Source of the DNA: Escherichia coli
GTDB taxonomy: Bacteria; Pseudomonadota; Gammaproteobacteria; Enterobacterales; Enterobacteriaceae
Length of the DNA: 64,000 nt
Direction: 5' to 3' (one strand)
Assembly (NCBI RefSeq): GCF_041886205.1
Contig: NZ_CP169029.1
The stretch's first letter is position 1; every line of letters begins with the position of its first letter. The notes under the pieces were generated by a model. It was not told where the DNA came from. It worked only from the letters and a program-made list of their open reading frames with translations, and made no database searches. The position numbers were made by a program, and so were the translations under genes. Shown here piece by piece: positions 1-30,356 of the stretch.

Positions 1-121
1 ATTGAAAACGAAACGACATGCGCCTGCGAAGCGCCTCATTTCACGCTCCTGTTGACCACCGGGTCTTAACTGGAATTTAAATGCCTGTAGTCGTTTCACA
101 GGTCAAATTATATTTTGGTCT

Positions 122-688
122 GTGAAAAAAGAAACCGATATCCGGCGTGGAAGGCATTGTGTTTTCCTGAAGCATGTTCACATGGTCTTTGTCACCAAAT
201 ACCGACGCCAGATTTTTGACCATGACGCGACAGAAAAACTACGCACTTACTTTTCAAATGTATGTGCTGATTTTGAAGCTGAACTGGTTGAAATGGATGG
301 CGAACCAGATCACGTCCATTTGTTAATTAACTATCCTCCCAAACTGGCGATATCCAGTCTGATAAACAGCCTCAAAAGCGTATCGGGTAGGTTACTGCGA
401 CGAGATCGACCAGATATTGCAGTCAGGTATTACTACAAAGGCGTTTTGTGGAGTCCTGGCTATTTTGCCAGTAGCTGCGGAGGTGCGCCAATATCCGTCA
501 TCCGCCAATACATTGAACAACAGCAAACACCTGGTCAGGTGGAAAACCGCGCCTTATATCCCCGCCCTGAAGGACGGGGTTTTACGGCGCACCGGATAAA
601 TTCGCCTCACGGCATCAACCCATTGAACAGACGTTTTTTACGCGGCCCGGTCATTAAAGATTCCAGTTTCGCGACACAGGTTTTGTAG
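122..688 (+). CDS. IS200/IS605-family transposase TnpA (Y1 HUH enzyme); 188-aa ORF, likely with a C-terminal read-through extension
   Basis: Translation has the HUH motif (PDHVHLLI), a conserved Tyr in [15 protein letters not shown] and a [13 protein letters not shown] tail, closely resembling IS608-type TnpA; the ORF continues about 30 aa past the usual family end and overlaps lsrG antisense. Confidence 0.7.
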
Positions 689-1821: not shown

Positions 1822-2844
1822 TCAGAAATCGTATTTGCCGATATTCTCTTTGTTGAATATCACGCGCTCCGGTAACAGTACGATGCCATTACCATCCGCT
1901 TCGTAGTCATAGCCCTGAACGCTGTTTGGCGAGACTTCAACCTGACCTACGCCCTTGATATCCAGCTTGTCGCCCGTTTTCATTGATCCTTTTTTCAATA
2001 ATGCATCCGCGACATACACTGAAATTTTGCCTTGCTGAACCACATCCCACAGGCCAAATTCTTTCACCGTGCCGCGCTCTACATACGGGCGCATCACATT
2101 TGGCGTACTGAATCCGACAATCGCAACTTTGTCATTTTTCAGGTTTTCTGCGGCTTGTGCGGCAGCGGGCAGGGCGTTGGCATCAGGGGCGATAATGGCG
2201 TCGAGATCGCTATACGCTTTTAATATTCCTTCTGCGGTTTGTAACGATTTAGTGGCATCGTTATAGCCAAACTGCGTAGTGACAATTTCCCAGCCAGGAT
2301 GCTCTTTGGCGATTTTCGCTTTCGCTTCTTTCACCCACTGGTTTTGGTCCGTAACGGTGGGGCTTGAGTAGAAAAACGCGACTTTGGCTTTGTCTTTATT
2401 CACCTGACGCGCCGCCATATCCACCAACATACCTCCCAACTGGGCGGGCGTTCCCTGATTAATGTAGTAAGAGCGGCACTCCGGTTTAGTATCAGAGTCC
2501 CAGGTCAGCACTCTCACACCACGTTGCATGGCGCGTTTCAGTGCCGGACACAAGCCATCAGGCGAAACCGCAGAAACGATAATGGCGTTATAACCCTGAT
2601 TGACGAAGTTATTAATCAACTGTACCTGACCAGAAACACTGGGTTCTGTCGGCCCGTCGTAGGTCACATCAACGCCCAGCTCTTTACCCGCTTGTTGTGC
2701 GCCGTTGCCACCACTGGTAAAAAATCCCACGCCAACCAGTTTGGGAATAAATGCAATACGCTCTGCGGCCTGCACATTCATAGAGATTGCGGCAATGCCA
2801 AGAGCGCTAAGTAAGGCGATTTTCTTAAAGCGATGAAGTGTCAT
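1822..2844 (-). CDS. lsrB: LsrB, periplasmic AI-2 binding protein (340 aa)
   Basis: N-terminal signal peptide ([26 protein letters not shown]), periplasmic sugar-binding fold; operon context. Confidence 0.9.
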
Positions 2845-2855
2845 GAAGATATCCT

Positions 2856-3848
2856 TTATGGCAATGGGTTATTGGCCCGACGCGCCAGCCACTCTTTAAT
2901 TTGCTGGCGATGCAGGCTAACGGAACGACCTACGACAACGACGATAAGTAGCGCACCGGAAAGGGCGCTGGACACCTGATTTGGCACTCCTGCCATTTGC
3001 AAACCTTGTTGCAAATATCCCACTAATAAAACCGCAATGGCGGTGCCGATAATGGAACCGGAACCACCATAAATATTGGCACCGCCAAGCACCACGGCGG
3101 TGATGGCGGGCATCAGAAACGACGCACCGAGATCGGAACGTGCTGAACCAAAATACGATACCAGCAGCACAGCGGCGACCGCAGACGCCAGCCCCGTCAT
3201 GGCATAGAGCGCACATAAGGTGCGGTTAACTGGAATCGCGCTATAAAGCGCCACGCGCGGGCTTTGCCCAATCAAAAACACATTACGTCCGGCATGGGTT
3301 TTATGCAGCCAGAGCCAGAAAACGAGGAGACATATCAGGAAGATAATCAGCGGAACGGGGAGCCCCAGCACATCCAGGTTAGCGAAATCTGTAAACGCCA
3401 TCGGGAATCCACCAATATCTTCGTACCCCGTCGCTCCGGCCATCCCGGAAAGCAGCAGGGCACTTCCGGCAAACAGATACAGCGTGCCAAGCGTAATCAC
3501 CAGCGGGTTAACTTTGGTATAGATAATTAATCCGGCGTTGATCAGCCCGCACAATACGCCGAGCAGTAAGGTCAGGAGTATCGCCAGCGGCATCGGCACA
3601 CCACTTTGAAACAGTACGCCCAATGCAATGGCGCAGAGGCCGATGGTCGAACCAAACGAAATATCGATCCCGCCACTGACAATCACCATCGTCAGCGGTA
3701 GGGCGACAATGCCAATGCAGATAAAGTCACTGGTGCTGAACAGCAACATATTGAGATCTAACATCCGCGGGTTAATTGCACCAAATGCGACAATCTCAAT
3801 AACGAGCAGTGCGGCAAGAGCCAGTTCCCAACCGTAGCGAATACGCAT
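2856..3848 (-). CDS. lsrD: LsrD, AI-2 ABC transporter permease (330 aa)
   Basis: Polytopic hydrophobic ORF; position between lsrC and lsrB. Confidence 0.9.
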
Positions 3849-4876
3849 TATGCGGCCTCCCGTTTTTTACCTGACGAAGCGGGTTTAACGGATGGCGGTG
3901 GCGTCATAAAGCGGGCATATTTTTGCCGCCGCAGATTACGTTCCAGCGCACAACGCAGGCGTCCATCAAACACCAGCACCGCTAGCAGCACGAGGCCCGC
4001 GATAAAATCGTTCCACCATGCCGGAATGCGCAACAGCACCAGTACGCTATCGATCTGCGTCAGGAACCATGCGCCGAGTACCGCACCGATGATCGCACCG
4101 GAACCGCCGAGCAAACTAATGCCGCCCAGCACGCAGGCTGCAATTGCTTTCATCTCCAGCCCGGTACCGGTCTGGTTGGGGATAAAACCAATCTGCGAAG
4201 CAAACACAATCCCCGCCAGTGCCGCCATGCAGCCGTTCAACGAAAATGCCACAATGCGAATGGCTTCCGTACGAACGCCCAGTTGACGAGCTCCCTGTAA
4301 ATTATCGCCCGTGGCATAAAAACTGCGTCCAAACGCCGTCTTTGCCAGCAGCCAGGCCATAAATGCCACCAGAATTATCGTTAACTAACCAATTGCTGAA
4401 ACGCCAAGCAGCAGCGGGGCGGAGAGCTGTTTCAGTTCGGCGGGTAACCCCTCAATCCATTTACCGCCAGTCCACAGCAACATGATGCCTCTGTACAACC
4501 CTAACGAGCCAAGGGTGGCAACAATGGCAGGGATCTTTAGCCACGCGACCAGGACACCGTTGAAAAATCCCGCGAGCAAACCAAGCAGTAAAGTCGCGAC
4601 ACAGGCAACAGGTAGTGAATATCCTGCGTTCAGTAACATCCCCAACAGCACCGCGCACATTCCGGTAATCGAACCCACTGAAACATCAATATTGCGCGTA
4701 AGCATTACCAGCGTCGCGCCCATTGCCAGCAGGATCAGGATTTGCGCGCTGCTATAAACCATGGTCAGCGTTTGCACACTTAAATACTGGCGGTCGAGAA
4801 AACCGGGTAATACAAACAGCAGCACCACCGCCAGCAGTGCCGTGATTTCACGGTTGTTCTGAATAAACTTCAGCAT
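3848..4876 (-). pseudogene. lsrC: lsrC, AI-2 ABC transporter permease interrupted by an in-frame TAG stop at codon 164 (complement of 4385-4387)
   Basis: Two same-frame ORFs (4385..4876 and 3848..4369) separated only by one stop codon; total span 1029 nt = 342 codons + stop, the length of an intact LsrC; sequence around the stop reads [19 protein letters not shown] where a Trp codon (TGG) is expected. Confidence 0.8.
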
Positions 4877-6395
4877 GACGCCTCCTGACGCTGACTATCG
4901 CCGAAGGCAACGCGCATAATAGTCTCGACATTAATATCGCGCCCGGTCAGTGCAGAGTGGGTAATTTCGCCCTGATGCATCACATACACACGATCTGCCA
5001 TCAGTTCGATCTCTTCCAGATCAGAGGAGATAAGCAGCACTGCCACATTCTGTGCGGCGATGCTGCGCAACAGCTGGTAGATATCATTACGGGCTGAGAC
5101 ATCCACGCCGCGCGTCGGCTCATCGACAATCAATGCTTGCGGCGAAGCTTCCAGGCATTTGGCAATGAGGATTTTTTGCTGGTTGCCACCGGATAATGTC
5201 CGTGCAGCTTGTTCCGGTTGGTTAAATTTAATATTCAGCGCCCGACGATATCGTTCCAGGGTGGCATTATCTTTCGCGGTTTTCGCCCAGAATCCACGAA
5301 GGTTATGAGTAAGGGCGCAGACGTTCCACGCCAGTGAAGCATCGAGATTCAGTCCGGATGACTGGCGATCTTCCGGCAGATAAACCAGACCGCGCAGTAA
5401 ACGTTCTCCGGTGGATAATCTATTGATCTCTTTACCATTCAGCATAATGCTTCCGCCACGCAAACTACGCAGACCATAGAGCGTCTCGGCCAGTTCTGTG
5501 CGTCCGGCTCCCACCAGCCCAGCCAGGCCCAGAATTTCTCCGGCATTGAGCGTCAGGCTGACATTCCTGAAACCTTCGCCAGTCAGATTTTCCAGTGTCA
5601 GCACCGACGTTCCGGCGGCATGTTGTGGGCGGTTACCAGGTAACTCCAGCCATAATTTTTGGCTGGCAGAGAGCGATTTTTCCCGTACCACTGGCGTGAT
5701 GGCCTGAATAATGTCGTCGGTAGACAGTTCGCTGGTTTTGCCGCTTAAGGCGATGGTTCCGTCGCGCATCACGCTAATTCGATCGGCAATCTGGCGAATT
5801 TCCGGCAGCTTATGCGAGATAAAAACAATACCCACGCCAGTAGCAAGCAGCTCTTGCAAGCGACTAAACAAGCGTTCGGTTTCCGCAGGGGTAAGCGAGG
5901 CGGTAGGTTCAGAATCCGCGAGTCGCGCATCAGCCCGCGGAGGATTTCCACCATTTGGCGATCGGCGACATCCAGCGATCCTGCCAGACTATGCAGATCA
6001 AACTGGCAGCCCAGCGCCGCCAGCAAGTTCTTCATTTTCTGCATGGAGAGCTGTTTTTTTGCCAGCCCAAACAGGATGTTTTCTTTTATCGACAGGCTTG
6101 GAAAAAGCAGCGGTTCCTGGGGAACGAGATAAATACCCAGCTGATGAGCATGAACTGGCGTTAATCTGGCGTAGTTGTTGCCCCCAATCTTCAGCGTACC
6201 GCTATCAGCAGGGGTAATACCGGCAATAATCTTCATTAACGTCGATTTACCGGCACCATTGCCGCCGAGCAGGGCGTGGACCTCCCCCTGATGCAACGTA
6301 AAATCGATGCCTTTCAGGACATTGACCCCTGAATACTGTTTATAAACCGAGCGGGCGCAAAGTAGCGGTAACGCGCGGGTATCACTCGTTTGCAT
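4870..6395 (-). pseudogene. lsrA: lsrA, AI-2 ABC transporter ATPase with a 10-nt deletion (frameshift) removing the first Walker B motif
   Basis: N-terminal ORF (5769..6395) leaves frame after ...[15 protein letters not shown]; the second ORF (4870..5871) is in another frame and resumes [22 protein letters not shown]...; total span 1526 nt against 1536 nt expected for a 511-aa LsrA; junction at about 5910/5911. Confidence 0.8.
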
Positions 6396-6643
6396 ATTTC
6401 CCCTGTTCAGTTTTGCAGGTGAGTTTTGAACAAATGTATTTCTGCTTTTAATTTGTTCATAACCTTAGGTGGACATTGCACATATTTCCGACGAATAGAT
6501 CACAATTTATGCTATTTTGATTCTCCCGGTTGCGTTTGTTCATACTCGTAGAGTCAAACTGTGGTTGCCATCACAGATATAAATGCGCAAGAACTGAACA
6601 ATTGCATTAAAGATTTAAATATGTTCAAAGTGAAGAATGAATT
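6396..6643. promoter_or_regulatory. lsrR / lsrACDBFG divergent promoter region (LsrR- and CRP-controlled in K-12); candidate CRP half-site near 6484-6505
   Basis: Divergent gene arrangement; AT-rich 248-bp intergenic region; TGTGA half-site on the minus strand (...gaatagatcaca...). Confidence 0.55.
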
Positions 6644-7597
6644 ATGACAATCAACGATTCGGTAATTTCAGAACAGGGAATGTGTGAAGAAGAACAGGTC
6701 GCGCGGATCGCGTGGTTTTACTACCACGACGGGCTGACCCAGAGTGAGATCAGCGATCGTCTCGGCCTGACCCGTTTGAAAGTGTCGCGATTACTGGAGA
6801 AAGGGCATCAATCCGGCATTATTCGCGTACAGATTAATTCTCGCTTTGAAGGCTGTCTGGAATATGAAACACAATTACGTCGTCAGTTTTCGCTGCAACA
6901 TGTCCGGGTGATCCCAGGGCTTGCGGATGCTGATGTCGGCGGGCGACTAGGGATAGGCGCGGCGCATATGTTGATGAGTTTACTTCAACCACAACAGATG
7001 CTGGCGATTGGTTTTGGCGAGGCAACCATGAATACGCTGCAACGCTTAAGTGGTTTTATTTCGTCACAGCAAATTCGCCTGGTCACGCTCTCCGGTGGAG
7101 TCGGTTCTTATATGACGGGTATCGGGCAGCTTAACGCGGCGTGCAGTGTGAATATTATTCCGGCTCCGTTGCGGGCATCCTCCGCTGACATTGCCCGTAC
7201 GCTAAAAAATGAAAATTGCGTCAAAGATGTTCTGCTAGCCGCGCAAGCAGCGGATGTGGCGATTGTCGGCATTGGTGCTGTGAGTCAACAGGACGATGCG
7301 ACAATCATTCGCTCCGGTTATATCAGCCAGGGCGAACAGTTAATGATTGGCCGAAAAGGTGCAATTGGCGACATTTTAGGCTACTTTTTTGATGCAAAAG
7401 GTGACGTTGTCACGGATATTAAAATACATAACGAACTGATTGGCTTACCTTTAAGCGCGCTGAAGACCATACCCGTCCGGGTTGGCGTGGCAGGGGGAGA
7501 AAATAAAGCCGAAGCAATTGTCGCTGCAATGAAAGGCGGTTATATCAACGCACTGGTCACCGATCAGGACACAGCAGCGGCGATTTTACGTAGTTAA
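6644..7597 (+). CDS. lsrR: LsrR, SorC-family repressor of the lsr operon (317 aa)
   Basis: Full-length ORF; N-terminal HTH and SorC-type sugar-phosphate binding domain; divergent from lsrA. Confidence 0.9.
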
Positions 7598-7675
7598 ATT
7601 TGCATGACCTTATTACCGGGAATGATGGAGAACGTATAGAGGAACAGACAGAACGCATAAGCCGAGGATAATCTA

Positions 7676-9268
7676 ATGGCTCGACTCTTTACCCCTTCAG
7701 AATCAAAGTATTACCTGATGGCGCTGGATGCAGGTACCGGAAGTATTCGGGCTGTGATATTCGACCTGGAAGGCAATCAAATAGCAGTGGGACAGGCGGA
7801 GTGGCGGCACCTGGCAGTACCGGACGTTCCTGGTTCTATGGAATTTGATCTCAACAAAAACTGGCAACTGGCGTGTGAGTGTATGCGCCAGGCGCTGCAC
7901 AACGCCGGCATAGCCCCGGAGTATATCGCTGCCGTTTCGGCATGTTCGATGCGTGAAGGCATTGTTTTATATAACAATGAAGGAACACCGATCTGGGCCT
8001 GCGCCAATGTGGATGCCAGAGCGGCGCGCGAAGTTAGCGAACTTAAAGAACTGCACAACAATACCTTTGAAAACGAAGTTTATCGCGCGACCGGACAAAC
8101 ACTGGCTTTAAGTGCCATCCCCAGATTACTTTGGCTGGCGCACCATCGTTCCGATATTTACCGTCAGGCATCAACCATCACCATGATCAGCGACTGGCTG
8201 GCCTATATGCTCAGCGGCGAACTTGCGGTGGATCCCTCTAACGCTGGCACCACGGGACTTCTTGATCTAACCATCCGTGACTGGAAACCTGCATTGCTGG
8301 ATATGGCTGGCCTGCGTGCCGATATTCTTTCTCCTGTCAAAGAAACCGGCACATTGCTGGGCGTGGTAAGTTCACAAGCGGCGGAACTCTGCGGTCTGAA
8401 GGTGGGCACTCCGGTGGTCGTTGGAGGAGGCGACGTGCAGCTTGGTTGCCTGGGGTTAGGCATTGTGCGTCCGGCACAAACCGCGGTTCTTGGCGGCACA
8501 TTCTGGCAGCAAGTTGTAAATTTAGCCGCGCCGGTGACAGACCCAGAAATGAACGTGCGCGTTAATCCTCATGTTATTCCTGGCATGGTACAAGCTGAAT
8601 CTATAAGCTTTTTTACCGGACTCACCATGCGCTGGTTCCGCGATGCTTTCTGTGCCGAAGAAAAACTGATTGCCGAACGTTTAGGCATCGACACCTATAC
8701 GCTGCTGGAAGAGATGGCCAGTCGGGTGCCGCCTGGGTCGTGGGGCGTAATGCCGATCTTCTCCGACAGAATGCGCTTTAAAACCTGGTATCACGCTGCG
8801 CCTTCCTTTATTAATTTGTCCATTGACCTGGATAAATGTAACAAAGCGACATTGTTCCGTGCGCTGGAAGAAAATGCGGCGATTGTATCAGCGTGTAATT
8901 TGCAGCAAATTGCTGATTTCTCGAATATTCATCCCACCTCGCTGGTTTTTGCTGGCGGAGGTTCAAAAGGGAAATTATGGAGTCAAATTCTCGCTGATGT
9001 CTCGGGATTACCCGTCAATATTCCGGTAGTCAAAGAAGCCACCGCATTAGGATGTGCCATTGCAGCTGGCGTCGGTGCCGGAATTTTTTCATCAATGGCA
9101 GAAACCGGAGAACGCCTGGTTCGCTGGGAACGGACGCACACACCAGACCCGGAAAAGCATGAACTTTATCAGGATTCACGCGATAAGTGGCAGGCAGTTT
9201 ATCAGGATCAGCTGGGGCTGGTTGATCATGGACTGACGACGTCGTTATGGAAAGCGCCTGGGTTATAG
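7676..9268 (+). CDS. lsrK: LsrK, autoinducer-2 kinase (FGGY carbohydrate kinase family, 530 aa)
   Basis: FGGY-kinase-like translation; immediately downstream of lsrR. Confidence 0.9.
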
Positions 9269-26399: not shown

Positions 26400-27695
26400 A
26401 TGACTCAACAACCATCGCGTACCGGCACGTTCGGCGCAATACTCCGTGTTACCAGCGGTAATTTCCTCGAACAGTTCGATTTTTTCCTGTTTGGTTTTTA
26501 CGCTACTTATATCGCAAAGACGTTTTTTCCTGCCGAAAGTGAGTTTGCCGCATTAATGCTTACTTTTGCCGTTTTTGGCTCCGGCTTTTTAATGCGCCCT
26601 ATCGGGGCCGTGGTATTGGGTGCATATATCGACAGAATTGGGCGACGGAAAGGGCTGATGGTTACCCTGGCGATTATGGGCTGCGGCACGATGCTCATCG
26701 CCCTCGTTCCGGGTTATCAGACTATCGGCCTGCTGGCCCCTGTACTGGTCCTGGTGGGGCGTCTGCTACAGGGATTTTCTGCTGGAGTCGAACTGGGCGG
26801 CGTCTCTGTTTATCTTTCTGAGATCGCCACACCAGGCAATAAAGGCTTTTATACCAGTTGGCAATCGGCCAGCCAGCAGGTGGCGATTGTGGTCGCCGCG
26901 CTGATCGGGTACGGTCTGAATGCCACGCTGGGACACGATGAAATCTCCGAATGGGGTTGGCGAATACCGTTCTTCATTGGCTGCATGATTATTCCGCTGA
27001 TTTTTGTTCTGCGACGTTCGCTTCAGGAAACTGAAACCTTTTTACAGCGTAAACACCGTCCGGACACCCGGGAAATTTTTACCACCATTGCTAAAAACTG
27101 GCGTATTATCACTGCGGGAACCCTGCTGGTGGCGATGACGACCACGACATTTTATTTTATTACTGTCTATACCCCCACTTACGGGAGAACGGTGTTGAAC
27201 CTGAGCGCACGTGATAGTCTGATCGTCACTATGCTGGTAGGGATTTCTAACTTTATATGGCTGCCGATTGGCGGCGCGATCTCTGACCGGATTGGGCGTC
27301 TCCCGGTGCTAATGGGCATCACCTTACTCGCCATCGTCACCACCTGGCCGGTGATGCACTGGCTTACCGCTGCACCTGACGTCACCCGCATGACACTGGT
27401 GCTGCTCTGGTTCTCGTTCTTTTTTGGGATGTATAACGGTGCAATGGTAGCAGCCCTGACAGAAGTGATGCCGGTTTATGTCCGAACCGTGGGTTTTTCG
27501 CTGGCCTTTAGTCTCGCCACGGCGATTTTCGGCGGCCTGACACCAGCCATCTCCACTGCATTGGTCCAGTTGACAGGCGATAAAAGTTCTCCTGGATGGT
27601 GGCTAATGTGCGCTGCGCTGTGCGGGCTCGCCGCGACGACAATACTGTTTGCTCGTCTCAGTAGTGGTTATCAGACAGTAAAAAATAAGCTCTGA
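26400..27695 (+). CDS. tcuC: TcuC-like MFS transporter (citrate/tricarballylate-proton symporter family), 431 aa
   Basis: 12-TM MFS protein with a metabolite-proton symporter signature; last gene of the cluster. Confidence 0.8.
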
Positions 27696-28175: not shown

Positions 28176-28608
28176 TAAACCCTGCATTTATCTGGTTAGA
28201 GCAATTTGGCGTTAGTTTCAGCAAGCAAACATTAACCATAGCTAATGATTTTTAGCTATATAAACCATTAGTAACTCTTGACCTTTCCTGACACTTCCCT
28301 TGTTCGCAATAATATTCTGTTTAGTCGCTGTTTATAAATAACATGCATAATGAAATCGTCATGTTATTTAGCGACATAAAATGTCTTTGCAAATACTCTC
28401 TTCAATAAGTGCAGCAATAAACTTGTTGTGGATAGGTGTCCTTGTGATTTAAAGATATTATCGTTCTTCGTGAAATGTAATAACCCTGGAAACTATATTC
28501 TCAGGGCAACAGCCAATCAAGAATGATTCTTGTTTTATAAGCAATAACAGAATGACTTAATTGTTAACTCTCTTTATTCAGCTACTTAAATGTAAATTTT
28601 GGAGAATT

Positions 28609-28749
28609 ATGAAACTCAAACATGTCGGTATGATTGTCGTTTCTGTGTTGGCGATGTCGTCTGCTGCGGTAAGTGCAGCCGAGGGTGATGAATCAGTAAC
28701 GACCACTGTTAATGGCGGTGTTATTCATTTTAAAGGTGAAGTGGTAAAT
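28609..28749 (+). pseudogene. FimA-like fimbrial major subunit, N-terminal 47 codons only (signal peptide plus start of the pilin domain)
   Basis: [47 protein letters not shown] closely matches the FimA N-terminus ([16 protein letters not shown]); reading frame is interrupted by IS3 at 28750. Confidence 0.65.
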
Positions 28750-28779
28750 TGATCCTACCCACGTAATATGGACACAGGC

Positions 28780-29646
28780 CTAAGCGAGGTTCTTGTTTTC
28801 AAATTGTTCCGGACTGAGGCCGCCACACCAACTGTGCCGCCGCCACCGATTGTAATCACATTCGATATAATTAAACACCGTTGCCCGCATTATTTCCCGG
28901 CTGATAAAGTGTTCTCCATGGATACATTCCACTTTCAGCGAATGAAAGAAGCTTTCCACGCAGGCATTATCGTAGCAGCAACCTTTTGCGCTCATACTTC
29001 CACGCAGATTATGCCGCTTCAGTTGCGCCTGATAATCTGCTGAACAGTACTGGCCTCCACGGTCCGTGTGAACGATAACGTTCCGGGGCCTCTTACGCCG
29101 CCACAGCGCCATCTGCAGGGCATCGCAGGCCAGTTGCGCCGTCATGCGTGGCGACATTGACCAGCCAATAACGGCACGTGACCACAGGTCAATGACCACT
29201 GCCAGATACAGCCAGCCTTCATCTGTACGTAAGTACGTGATGTCTCCTGCCCACTTCTGGTTCGGGCCACTGGCGTAAAAATCCTGCTCCAACAGATTTT
29301 CTGACACAGGCAGGCCGTTTGCGCGGTAGCTGACCGGGCTGAACTTCCGGGAGGCCTTTGCCCTCAGTCCCTGACGGCGCAGGCTTGCCGCCACGGTTTT
29401 TACGTTAAAGGGGTAACCCTGAGCACGCAGTTCATCCGTCAGGCGTGGGGCACCGTAACGCTGTTTTGACCGGGTAAAAGCCGCGAGGACAACGCTGTCG
29501 CAGTGTTGGCGGAACTGCTGACGCGTGCTTATCCTTGTCCGCCGCTGACACCACGTATACCAGCCGCTGCGGGCCACCCGGAGCACGCGGCACATTGCTT
29601 TGATGCTGAACTCAGCCTGATGTTTTTCAATAAAGACATACTTCAT
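28780..29646 (-). CDS. insF: IS3 OrfB transposase (DDE integrase domain), 288 aa
   Basis: Translation [32 protein letters not shown]...; DDE catalytic domain; overlaps orfA in the -1 frame. Confidence 0.85.
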
Positions 29647-29942
29647 TTCAGGCGCTTCGCGAAGTATGTCGCGGCCTTTTGGAGGATAGCCAGCTCTTCA
29701 TCCCGTTCTGCCAGCTGGCGTTTGAGACGTGCAATCTCGGTAGACATCTCCAGTTCACGTTCAGAAGACGTCTGCTGATTTTGCTGTTTACTGCGCCAGT
29801 TGTAGAGCTGTGATTCATACAGGCTGAGTTCACGGGCTGCGGCAGTAACACCGATGCGTTCAGCAAGCTTCAGGGCTTCACTGCGAAATTCAGGCGAATG
29901 CTGTTTACGGGGTTTTTTACTGGTTGATACTGTTTTTGTCAT
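29643..29942 (-). CDS. insE: IS3 OrfA (HTH and leucine zipper), 99 aa
   Basis: Translation [53 protein letters not shown]...; ORF-track start trimmed to MTKTV. Confidence 0.85.
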
Positions 29943-30007
29943 GTGAGTCACCTCTGACTGAGAGTTTACTCACTTAGCCGCGTGTCCACTATTGCTGGGT
30001 AAGATCA

Positions 30008-30343
30008 AATGTTGAACTGGATGAAACCGTGGTCACTGTCATCCCAACTCACGGTGCTATTGCCAGAGCAACATTTAATGCACAAATCGGCGGGAAAGTA
30101 TTAATGACGTTGAAGTACGGTAATAAGAGCGTTCCATTCGGTGCAATTGTCACACACGGAGAGAATAAAAATGGCAGCATTGTCGCGGAAAACGGTCAGG
30201 TTTATCTGACTGGACTTCCACAGTCAGGGAAATTACAGGTTTCATGGGGTAAAGATAAAAACTCAAACTGTATTGTCGAGTACAAGCTTCCTGAAGTTTC
30301 TCCTGGTACCTTACTGAACCAGCAGACAGCAATCTGTCGCTAA
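30008..30343 (+). pseudogene. ydeT: Fimbrial usher C-terminal fragment (ydeT-type remnant)
   Basis: ...FGAIVTHGENKNGSIVAENGQVYLTGLPQSGKLQVSWGKDKNSNCIVEYKLPEVSPGTLLNQQTAICR matches the C-terminal domain of FimD-type ushers; in frame with the FimA-like fragment once IS3 and one AAT copy are removed. Confidence 0.7.
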
Positions 30344-30356
30344 GGAACAATAGATT

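Follow-up and report, generated by a model that had tools for sequence, protein, structure and literature searches.

Loss of function in the lsr operon is already well known in Escherichia coli and Shigella. The main text of Brito, Rocha, Xavier and Gordo reports that lsr was inactivated independently at least eight times in the 44 genomes studied from these two groups, and counts 34 lsr pseudogenes, six of which are attributed to small indels and two to point nonsense mutations (Brito et al., 2013; PMC3595036). The same account notes IS elements flanking decaying lsr operons and describes single K-12 knockouts of lsrA, lsrC, lsrD and lsrB, all of which reduce AI-2 uptake (PMC3595036). From these single knockouts it may be expected that a second lesion in the same transporter adds little.

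The lsr locus analyzed here lies in a 64-kb stretch of E. coli DNA, referred to as the window, and carries an amber codon within lsrC. It resembles the decaying operons described in the main text of Brito et al. in that the importer is inactivated, several lesions are found in one operon, a small indel is combined with a point nonsense mutation, the carriers are natural isolates and an IS remnant lies at the operon flank. As in those operons, the lesions stand against intact close relatives, and several independent lesions follow the first. The gene for the signal synthase, luxS, is located outside the 64 kb covered here. The locus differs from the 44 genomes treated in that main text, which do not include this combination of alleles, and in that the order of the lesions can here be read directly from nested genotypes. 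In comparison with K-12-type LsrC, a component of the LsrACDB AI-2 ABC importer, it is the same gene at the same locus position with 342 codons, and its DNA is 99.9% identical to intact alleles; unlike these, it has TAG in place of TGG at codon 164 and encodes residues 1-163 only, and the NCBI pipeline would flag it as having an 'internal stop'.

The amber codon of lsrC

The features of the interrupted gene are as follows.

4876..3848, minus strand: lsrC pseudogene, 342 codons plus stop with a single in-frame amber, as read from the translation
4387..4385, minus strand: amber TAG, codon 164 of lsrC; derived from TGG (Trp) by a change to T at plus-strand position 4386
4388..4876, minus strand: N-terminal LsrC fragment of 163 aa, from the open reading frame list; the sole product expected from normal initiation
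3848..4384, minus strand: remnant of the LsrC C terminus (codons 165-342), predicted by gene callers from the ATG of codon 173 as a 170-aa product

Translation of 4876..3848 yields 343 codons, the last being the natural stop and codon 164 the only internal one, and the minus strand around the amber reads GCA ATT GGT TAG TTA ACG ATA ATT CTG GTG GCA TTT ATG GCC TGG. The ORF finder splits the gene into 4385..4876 (163 aa) and 3848..4369. Base-by-base alignment to the nearest intact E. coli lsrC, that of NZ_CP080070, reveals one differing base, a G to A change at codon position 2 (C to T at 4386 on the plus strand), and W164* is the only difference between the two proteins. Translation and alignment therefore bear out every detail of the initial annotation, which had described a single in-frame amber, TGG to TAG, at codon 164 of lsrC. 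With the tryptophan restored, the protein is WP_040062989.1, which is annotated as LsrC. The two fragments were also compared with NF011961, the NCBIfam equivalog model for LsrC, which has 344 positions and a curated cut-off of 388 bits. They align to positions 1-163 (303.6 bits) and 165-343 (345.4 bits), so that each alone falls below the cut-off while the two jointly cover the whole model; for both, LsrC is by far the best family.

Residue 164 is located within a hydrophobic stretch spanning residues 150-183; a sequence search of the Protein Data Bank for a structure on which to place this residue returned no match. Translation of LsrC would end after 163 residues inside this stretch, which is probably transmembrane, and the missing C-terminal half is expected to leave the product non-functional. 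Because the reading frame is interrupted by TAG at codon 164, lsrC is a pseudogene and does not count as a functional LsrC. How well Trp164 is conserved outside E. coli has no bearing on this verdict, the change being a nonsense mutation.

The T at 4386 occurs in four other assemblies: SRR14867109 (L005), SRR28800585 (L006), GCA_036252075.1 (L010) and that of E. coli N1, GCA_000303635.2 (L011). In the first two, which come from unrelated sequencing runs, the locus matches the window at 100% identity across 6.5 and 4.9 kb, respectively. The base is C in NZ_CP080070 (L001), E. coli C (L002), wlxctx60 (L003), 6EVA (L004), ERR1790342 (L012) and a further fetched locus, L014. That lsrC is in truth intact and the T at 4386 an artifact of sequencing or assembly would fit with the change being a single base, but the same base is present in all four of these other assemblies, and wherever T is found at 4386 it is accompanied by the same lsrA deletion, the same LsrD D144 residue and the same promoter SNP described below. 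Since the T recurs in this way, the base call is replicated across independent assemblies and the mutation is very unlikely to be an error; we give that explanation almost no weight.

The truncated product itself has been deposited. An exact-protein look-up found the 163-aa LsrC protein on 15-17 contigs, with a record from E. coli N1 (EKI53599.1), and the 170-aa ATG-start C-terminal reading frame is present as EKI53600.1; the split lsrC reading frames of this strain were deposited in 2012. In the protein collection the C-terminal part is represented by this ATG-start version only, and the 173-aa GTG-start version is absent. A literature search on the strain 'E. coli N1' returned nothing relevant. 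An exact look-up of a truncated protein can also return wild-type genes that break off at the same codon where a contig ends, and one candidate carrier, L007, was excluded for this reason: it is an ENA metagenome scaffold of 568 bp, ending ...GGTTG, in which the wild-type TGG codon coincides with the contig end.

Among complete genomes the allele is rare. A megablast search with the 1029 bases of lsrC found the gene in 4257 of 5426 complete RefSeq E. coli genomes, the best being 99.9% identical and none reaching 100%. An 81-nt probe centered on the amber matched 3995 of the 5426 complete genomes searched and found the amber in none of these, with best matches differing at one position. Reference lsrC orthologues that end at the same codon, which the initial annotation had named as refuting its reading, were looked for among the complete E. 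coli genomes and none was found.

The lsrA deletion and the remainder of the lsr locus

The partner ATPase gene of the importer carries a separate lesion.

6395..4870, minus strand: lsrA pseudogene with a 10-bp deletion and frameshift; junction at approximately 5911/5912 (5905-5920)

The ten deleted bases are TGATCCTCGA, with a TGA direct repeat flanking the site, and the loss of sequence between these repeats looks like replication slippage. Where the reference protein reads R-I-L-I-L-D-E-P-T, the window reads R-I-L-N-L-P..., so that the deletion shifts the frame and takes away part of ILILDE, which we take to be Walker B in the first nucleotide-binding domain. The resulting LsrA fragments match model NF011967 at positions 1-164 and 213-510. 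The frameshift product of 208 aa was found by exact-protein look-up on about 165 public contigs, and a probe spanning the junction gave matches of 99% or more in three complete genomes, of which wlxctx60 and 6EVA were read; both match at 100%. NCBI annotates lsrA as 'frameshifted' in both. The lsrA deletion is the older, primary knockout of the Lsr importer. The initial annotation had proposed that the amber hits this ABC importer a second time, independently of the frameshift in lsrA, and this proposal stands, with the 10-bp deletion confirmed.

The state of lsrA also bears on whether a functional LsrC could persist despite the amber, through suppression of the supE (glnV) type, natural readthrough, or half-permeases made by re-initiation at GTG170 or ATG173. 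The GTG and ATG codons follow the TAG at distances of 15 and 24 nt, and the 170-aa reading frame is predicted by gene callers. However, neither restart codon is preceded by a good Shine-Dalgarno sequence (GGTGG only, read by eye), and a search for suppressor tRNAs with ARAGORN identified no tRNA gene within the 64-kb window. The amber is followed by U, and a stop codon followed by U is a strong termination context in E. coli; supE is also rare in natural isolates. Furthermore, even a full-length LsrC would lack its ATPase partner, as lsrA is frameshifted. The situation is akin to that of the supE-read ambers of laboratory K-12 in that a UAG lies inside a coding sequence, but differs in that this is a natural isolate with an independently broken ATPase, so that suppression would not restore function. 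Persistence of a functional LsrC is thus very improbable, and supE readthrough is functionally moot for AI-2 import because LsrA is frameshifted through Walker B.

The other parts of the locus are listed below.

2856..3848, minus strand: lsrD, frame intact, 330 aa, with a derived G144D substitution
1822-2844, minus strand: lsrB, frame intact, same length as in the annotated references L001 and L003
920-1795, minus strand: lsrF, frame intact, same length as in L001 and L003
607-897, minus strand: lsrG, frame intact, same length as in L001 and L003
6396..6643, no strand given: divergent promoter region between lsrR and lsrA, with a derived SNP at 6526
6644-7597, plus strand: lsrR, frame intact, same length as in the annotated references
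7676-9268, plus strand: lsrK, frame intact, same length as in the annotated references

The gene order, lsrA-lsrC-lsrD-lsrB-lsrF-lsrG with divergent lsrR-lsrK, is collinear with that of the annotated loci L001, L002, L003 and L014. The initial annotation regarded lsrB, lsrD, lsrF, lsrG, lsrR and lsrK as intact; this holds for the lengths of the reading frames, which match the references, but LsrD carries the derived Gly144Asp substitution. For this change (GGT to GAT at window position 3418), exact-protein counts place the D144 protein on 22-40 contigs and the G144 protein on more than 1000. Every amber carrier has D144, as does ERR1790342, an intermediate with intact lsrC; it is absent from wlxctx60, 6EVA, VE-T9 and E. 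coli C. The promoter SNP at 6526 is a derived T to G change in the lsrA sense, converting ...CAACCGTGAGAAT... to ...CAACCGGGAGAAT...; it is distributed in the same way as LsrD G144D, being common to L005, L010, L011 and L012, whereas wlxctx60 and 6EVA lack it. The genes lsrB, lsrF and lsrG lie downstream of both the lsrA and lsrC lesions in the same operon, and premature termination in lsrA and lsrC probably lowers expression of lsrDBFG via polarity.

At the edge of the window (1-594), between lsrG and tam, there is a remnant of an IS200/IS605-family tnpA, and relatives have a TnpB gene beyond the position of the left edge. The remnant is common to wlxctx60, 6EVA and VE-T9 and is absent from L001 and L002.

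Order of the changes and stepwise decay of the importer

The fetched loci were genotyped at four lsr sites, namely the lsrA deletion and positions 3418, 6526 and 4386. None of the four changes is present in L001, L002 or VE-T9, and the lsrA deletion is the only one of the four in wlxctx60 and 6EVA. The locus from ERR1790342 (L012) combines the lsrA deletion with LsrD G144D and the promoter SNP and retains an intact lsrC of 342 aa, and the window, L005, L006, L010 and L011 have the amber in addition. Exact-protein contig counts follow the same series, with 165 for the LsrA frameshift product, 22 for LsrD-D144 and 15-17 for LsrC 1-163. The nested genotypes and the contig counts indicate that at least four derived changes have accumulated at this locus, and that the amber came last among them, after the loss of the ATPase.

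The nearest complete genome is that of wlxctx60 (NZ_AP045833), isolated from Japanese black bear feces; across the 64 kb, 12 SNPs and one 5-bp indel separate it from the window. It shares with the window the 10-bp lsrA deletion and the IS200/IS605 remnant beside lsrG, as does 6EVA (NZ_CP138428); in contrast to the window, both have an intact lsrC and LsrD G144. While wlxctx60 carries the lsrA deletion without any further lsr lesion, 6EVA, which has only the lsrA deletion of the window's lsr changes, has acquired its own lsrK truncation and lsrB frameshift (at 6282-7277 and 12109-13130 of L004). The truncated lsrK of 6EVA abuts a truncated hipA and lies near filamentous-phage-like genes, encoding a zonular occludens toxin domain protein and a replication protein. 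A separate, independent lesion of an Lsr transporter is seen in the well-known strain E. coli C (L002), where the annotation gives lsrB (7033-8055) as a pseudogene on account of an internal stop.

Relatives with the first lesion were isolated from bear feces, human feces and an anal swab. A cultivated strain had been considered as one possible background for the double lesion; this suggestion is not upheld, as the closest relatives are wild bear and human fecal isolates and the allele occurs in several unrelated sequencing runs, and nothing suggests a laboratory origin of the lineage. Shigella, which the double pseudogene might suggest as the source, was rejected since the window is nearly identical to the commensal E. 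coli wlxctx60 across 64 kb.

Taken together, these observations make it highly probable that the amber arose late, by neutral drift, in a commensal, phylogroup-A-like E. coli clone of natural origin in which the Lsr AI-2 importer was already dead. In the order shown by the nested genotypes, a 10-bp slippage deletion came first, putting lsrA out of frame and destroying Walker B in its first ATPase domain; LsrD G144D and the lsr promoter SNP came next, and LsrC W164* was last, through one G:C to A:T transition. Without the ATPase the permease would have had no selectable function, and we infer that the nonsense mutation was for this reason effectively neutral and was fixed by drift in a sub-clone. 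The suggestion that selection on AI-2 import is relaxed in this lineage is the one that fits best: the lsrA deletion is older than the amber and about ten times more widespread (165 versus 15-17 contigs), and the suggestion is further supported by the intermediate genotype of L012 and by the different second lesions in lsrB and lsrK of 6EVA. We regard the allele series as ordinary secondary pseudogenization of a gene in which the phenomenon is familiar. For annotation, both lsrC and lsrA of the source genome are to be flagged as pseudogenes, and the strain is to be scored as predicted to be defective in Lsr-mediated AI-2 import. Judging by the K-12 knockouts (PMC3595036), it would be expected to clear extracellular AI-2 more slowly than an lsr+ strain.

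The changes could also have been driven by selection. To place them on branches, the differences between the window and wlxctx60 were polarized with VE-T9, CP52E and 6EVA as outgroups. The branch leading to the window carries 6-7 derived SNPs in 64 kb, three of which fall within the 8.7-kb lsr locus; these three are the nonsense mutation, the Gly to Asp substitution and the promoter change, all potentially damaging, and the others comprise two synonymous changes and two Ala to Thr substitutions. The excess in the lsr locus has a binomial P of about 0.04-0.06 in a test that was chosen post hoc and involves three SNPs. This borderline excess fits relaxed constraint and is also compatible with selection for shut-down of the locus, and no conclusion is drawn from it.

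Under such selection, the promoter SNP, LsrD G144D and the LsrC amber would have been fixed by adaptive silencing and not by drift, and the clone could gain by no longer spending on membrane proteins without a use, or by leaving AI-2 unconsumed. The mild excess of derived, potentially damaging lsr changes on the branch of the window is in keeping with this, as are the independent additional lesions in lsrB and lsrK of 6EVA. Two published observations point in the same direction: the main text of Brito et al. argues that lsr pseudogenization is too fast for neutrality and fits balancing or social-cheater selection (PMC3595036), and strain 83972 becomes less fit when lsr is re-introduced (PMC12263705). 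On the other hand, the statistical signal consists of three SNPs with the post hoc P value given above, wlxctx60 retains the lsrA deletion without a further lesion in the lsr locus, and the single knockouts of lsrA, lsrC, lsrD and lsrB described by Brito et al. each already reduce uptake (PMC3595036), from which the effect of a second lesion would be expected to be small. We therefore consider adaptive silencing unlikely, though deserving of some weight, and favor drift after loss of the ATPase. Were adaptive silencing to be true, this small clade would represent a natural time series of the evolution of an adaptive quorum-sensing 'cheater'.

The value added by this locus is that each intermediate step of its decay is preserved in public assemblies, from which the order is directly readable. 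The clade may serve as a small worked example, or as a test set, of the order in which and the speed at which an operon erodes once a first gene has been knocked out, and may help to tell neutral from favored loss of lsr.

Other features of the window

Further features of the window lie away from the lsr locus. At 27149-27153, within the reading frame at 26400-27695, the window has the bases ATTTT, which wlxctx60 lacks, and an MFS transporter gene adjoining tcuB, intact in the window as a 431-aa reading frame, is annotated as frameshifted in wlxctx60. An IS3-family element, with a 288-aa reading frame at 28780-29646 on the minus strand, interrupts a fimbrial operon at about 28600-30350, of which FimA-like and usher fragments remain; the arrangement is the same in wlxctx60, VE-T9 and CP52E. 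The hipBA genes (15430-17030) are uninterrupted in the window, and in wlxctx60 (L003 18708-25676) hipA is split by the insertion of a Tn3-family element, TnAs1, carrying a gene for a methyl-accepting chemotaxis protein.
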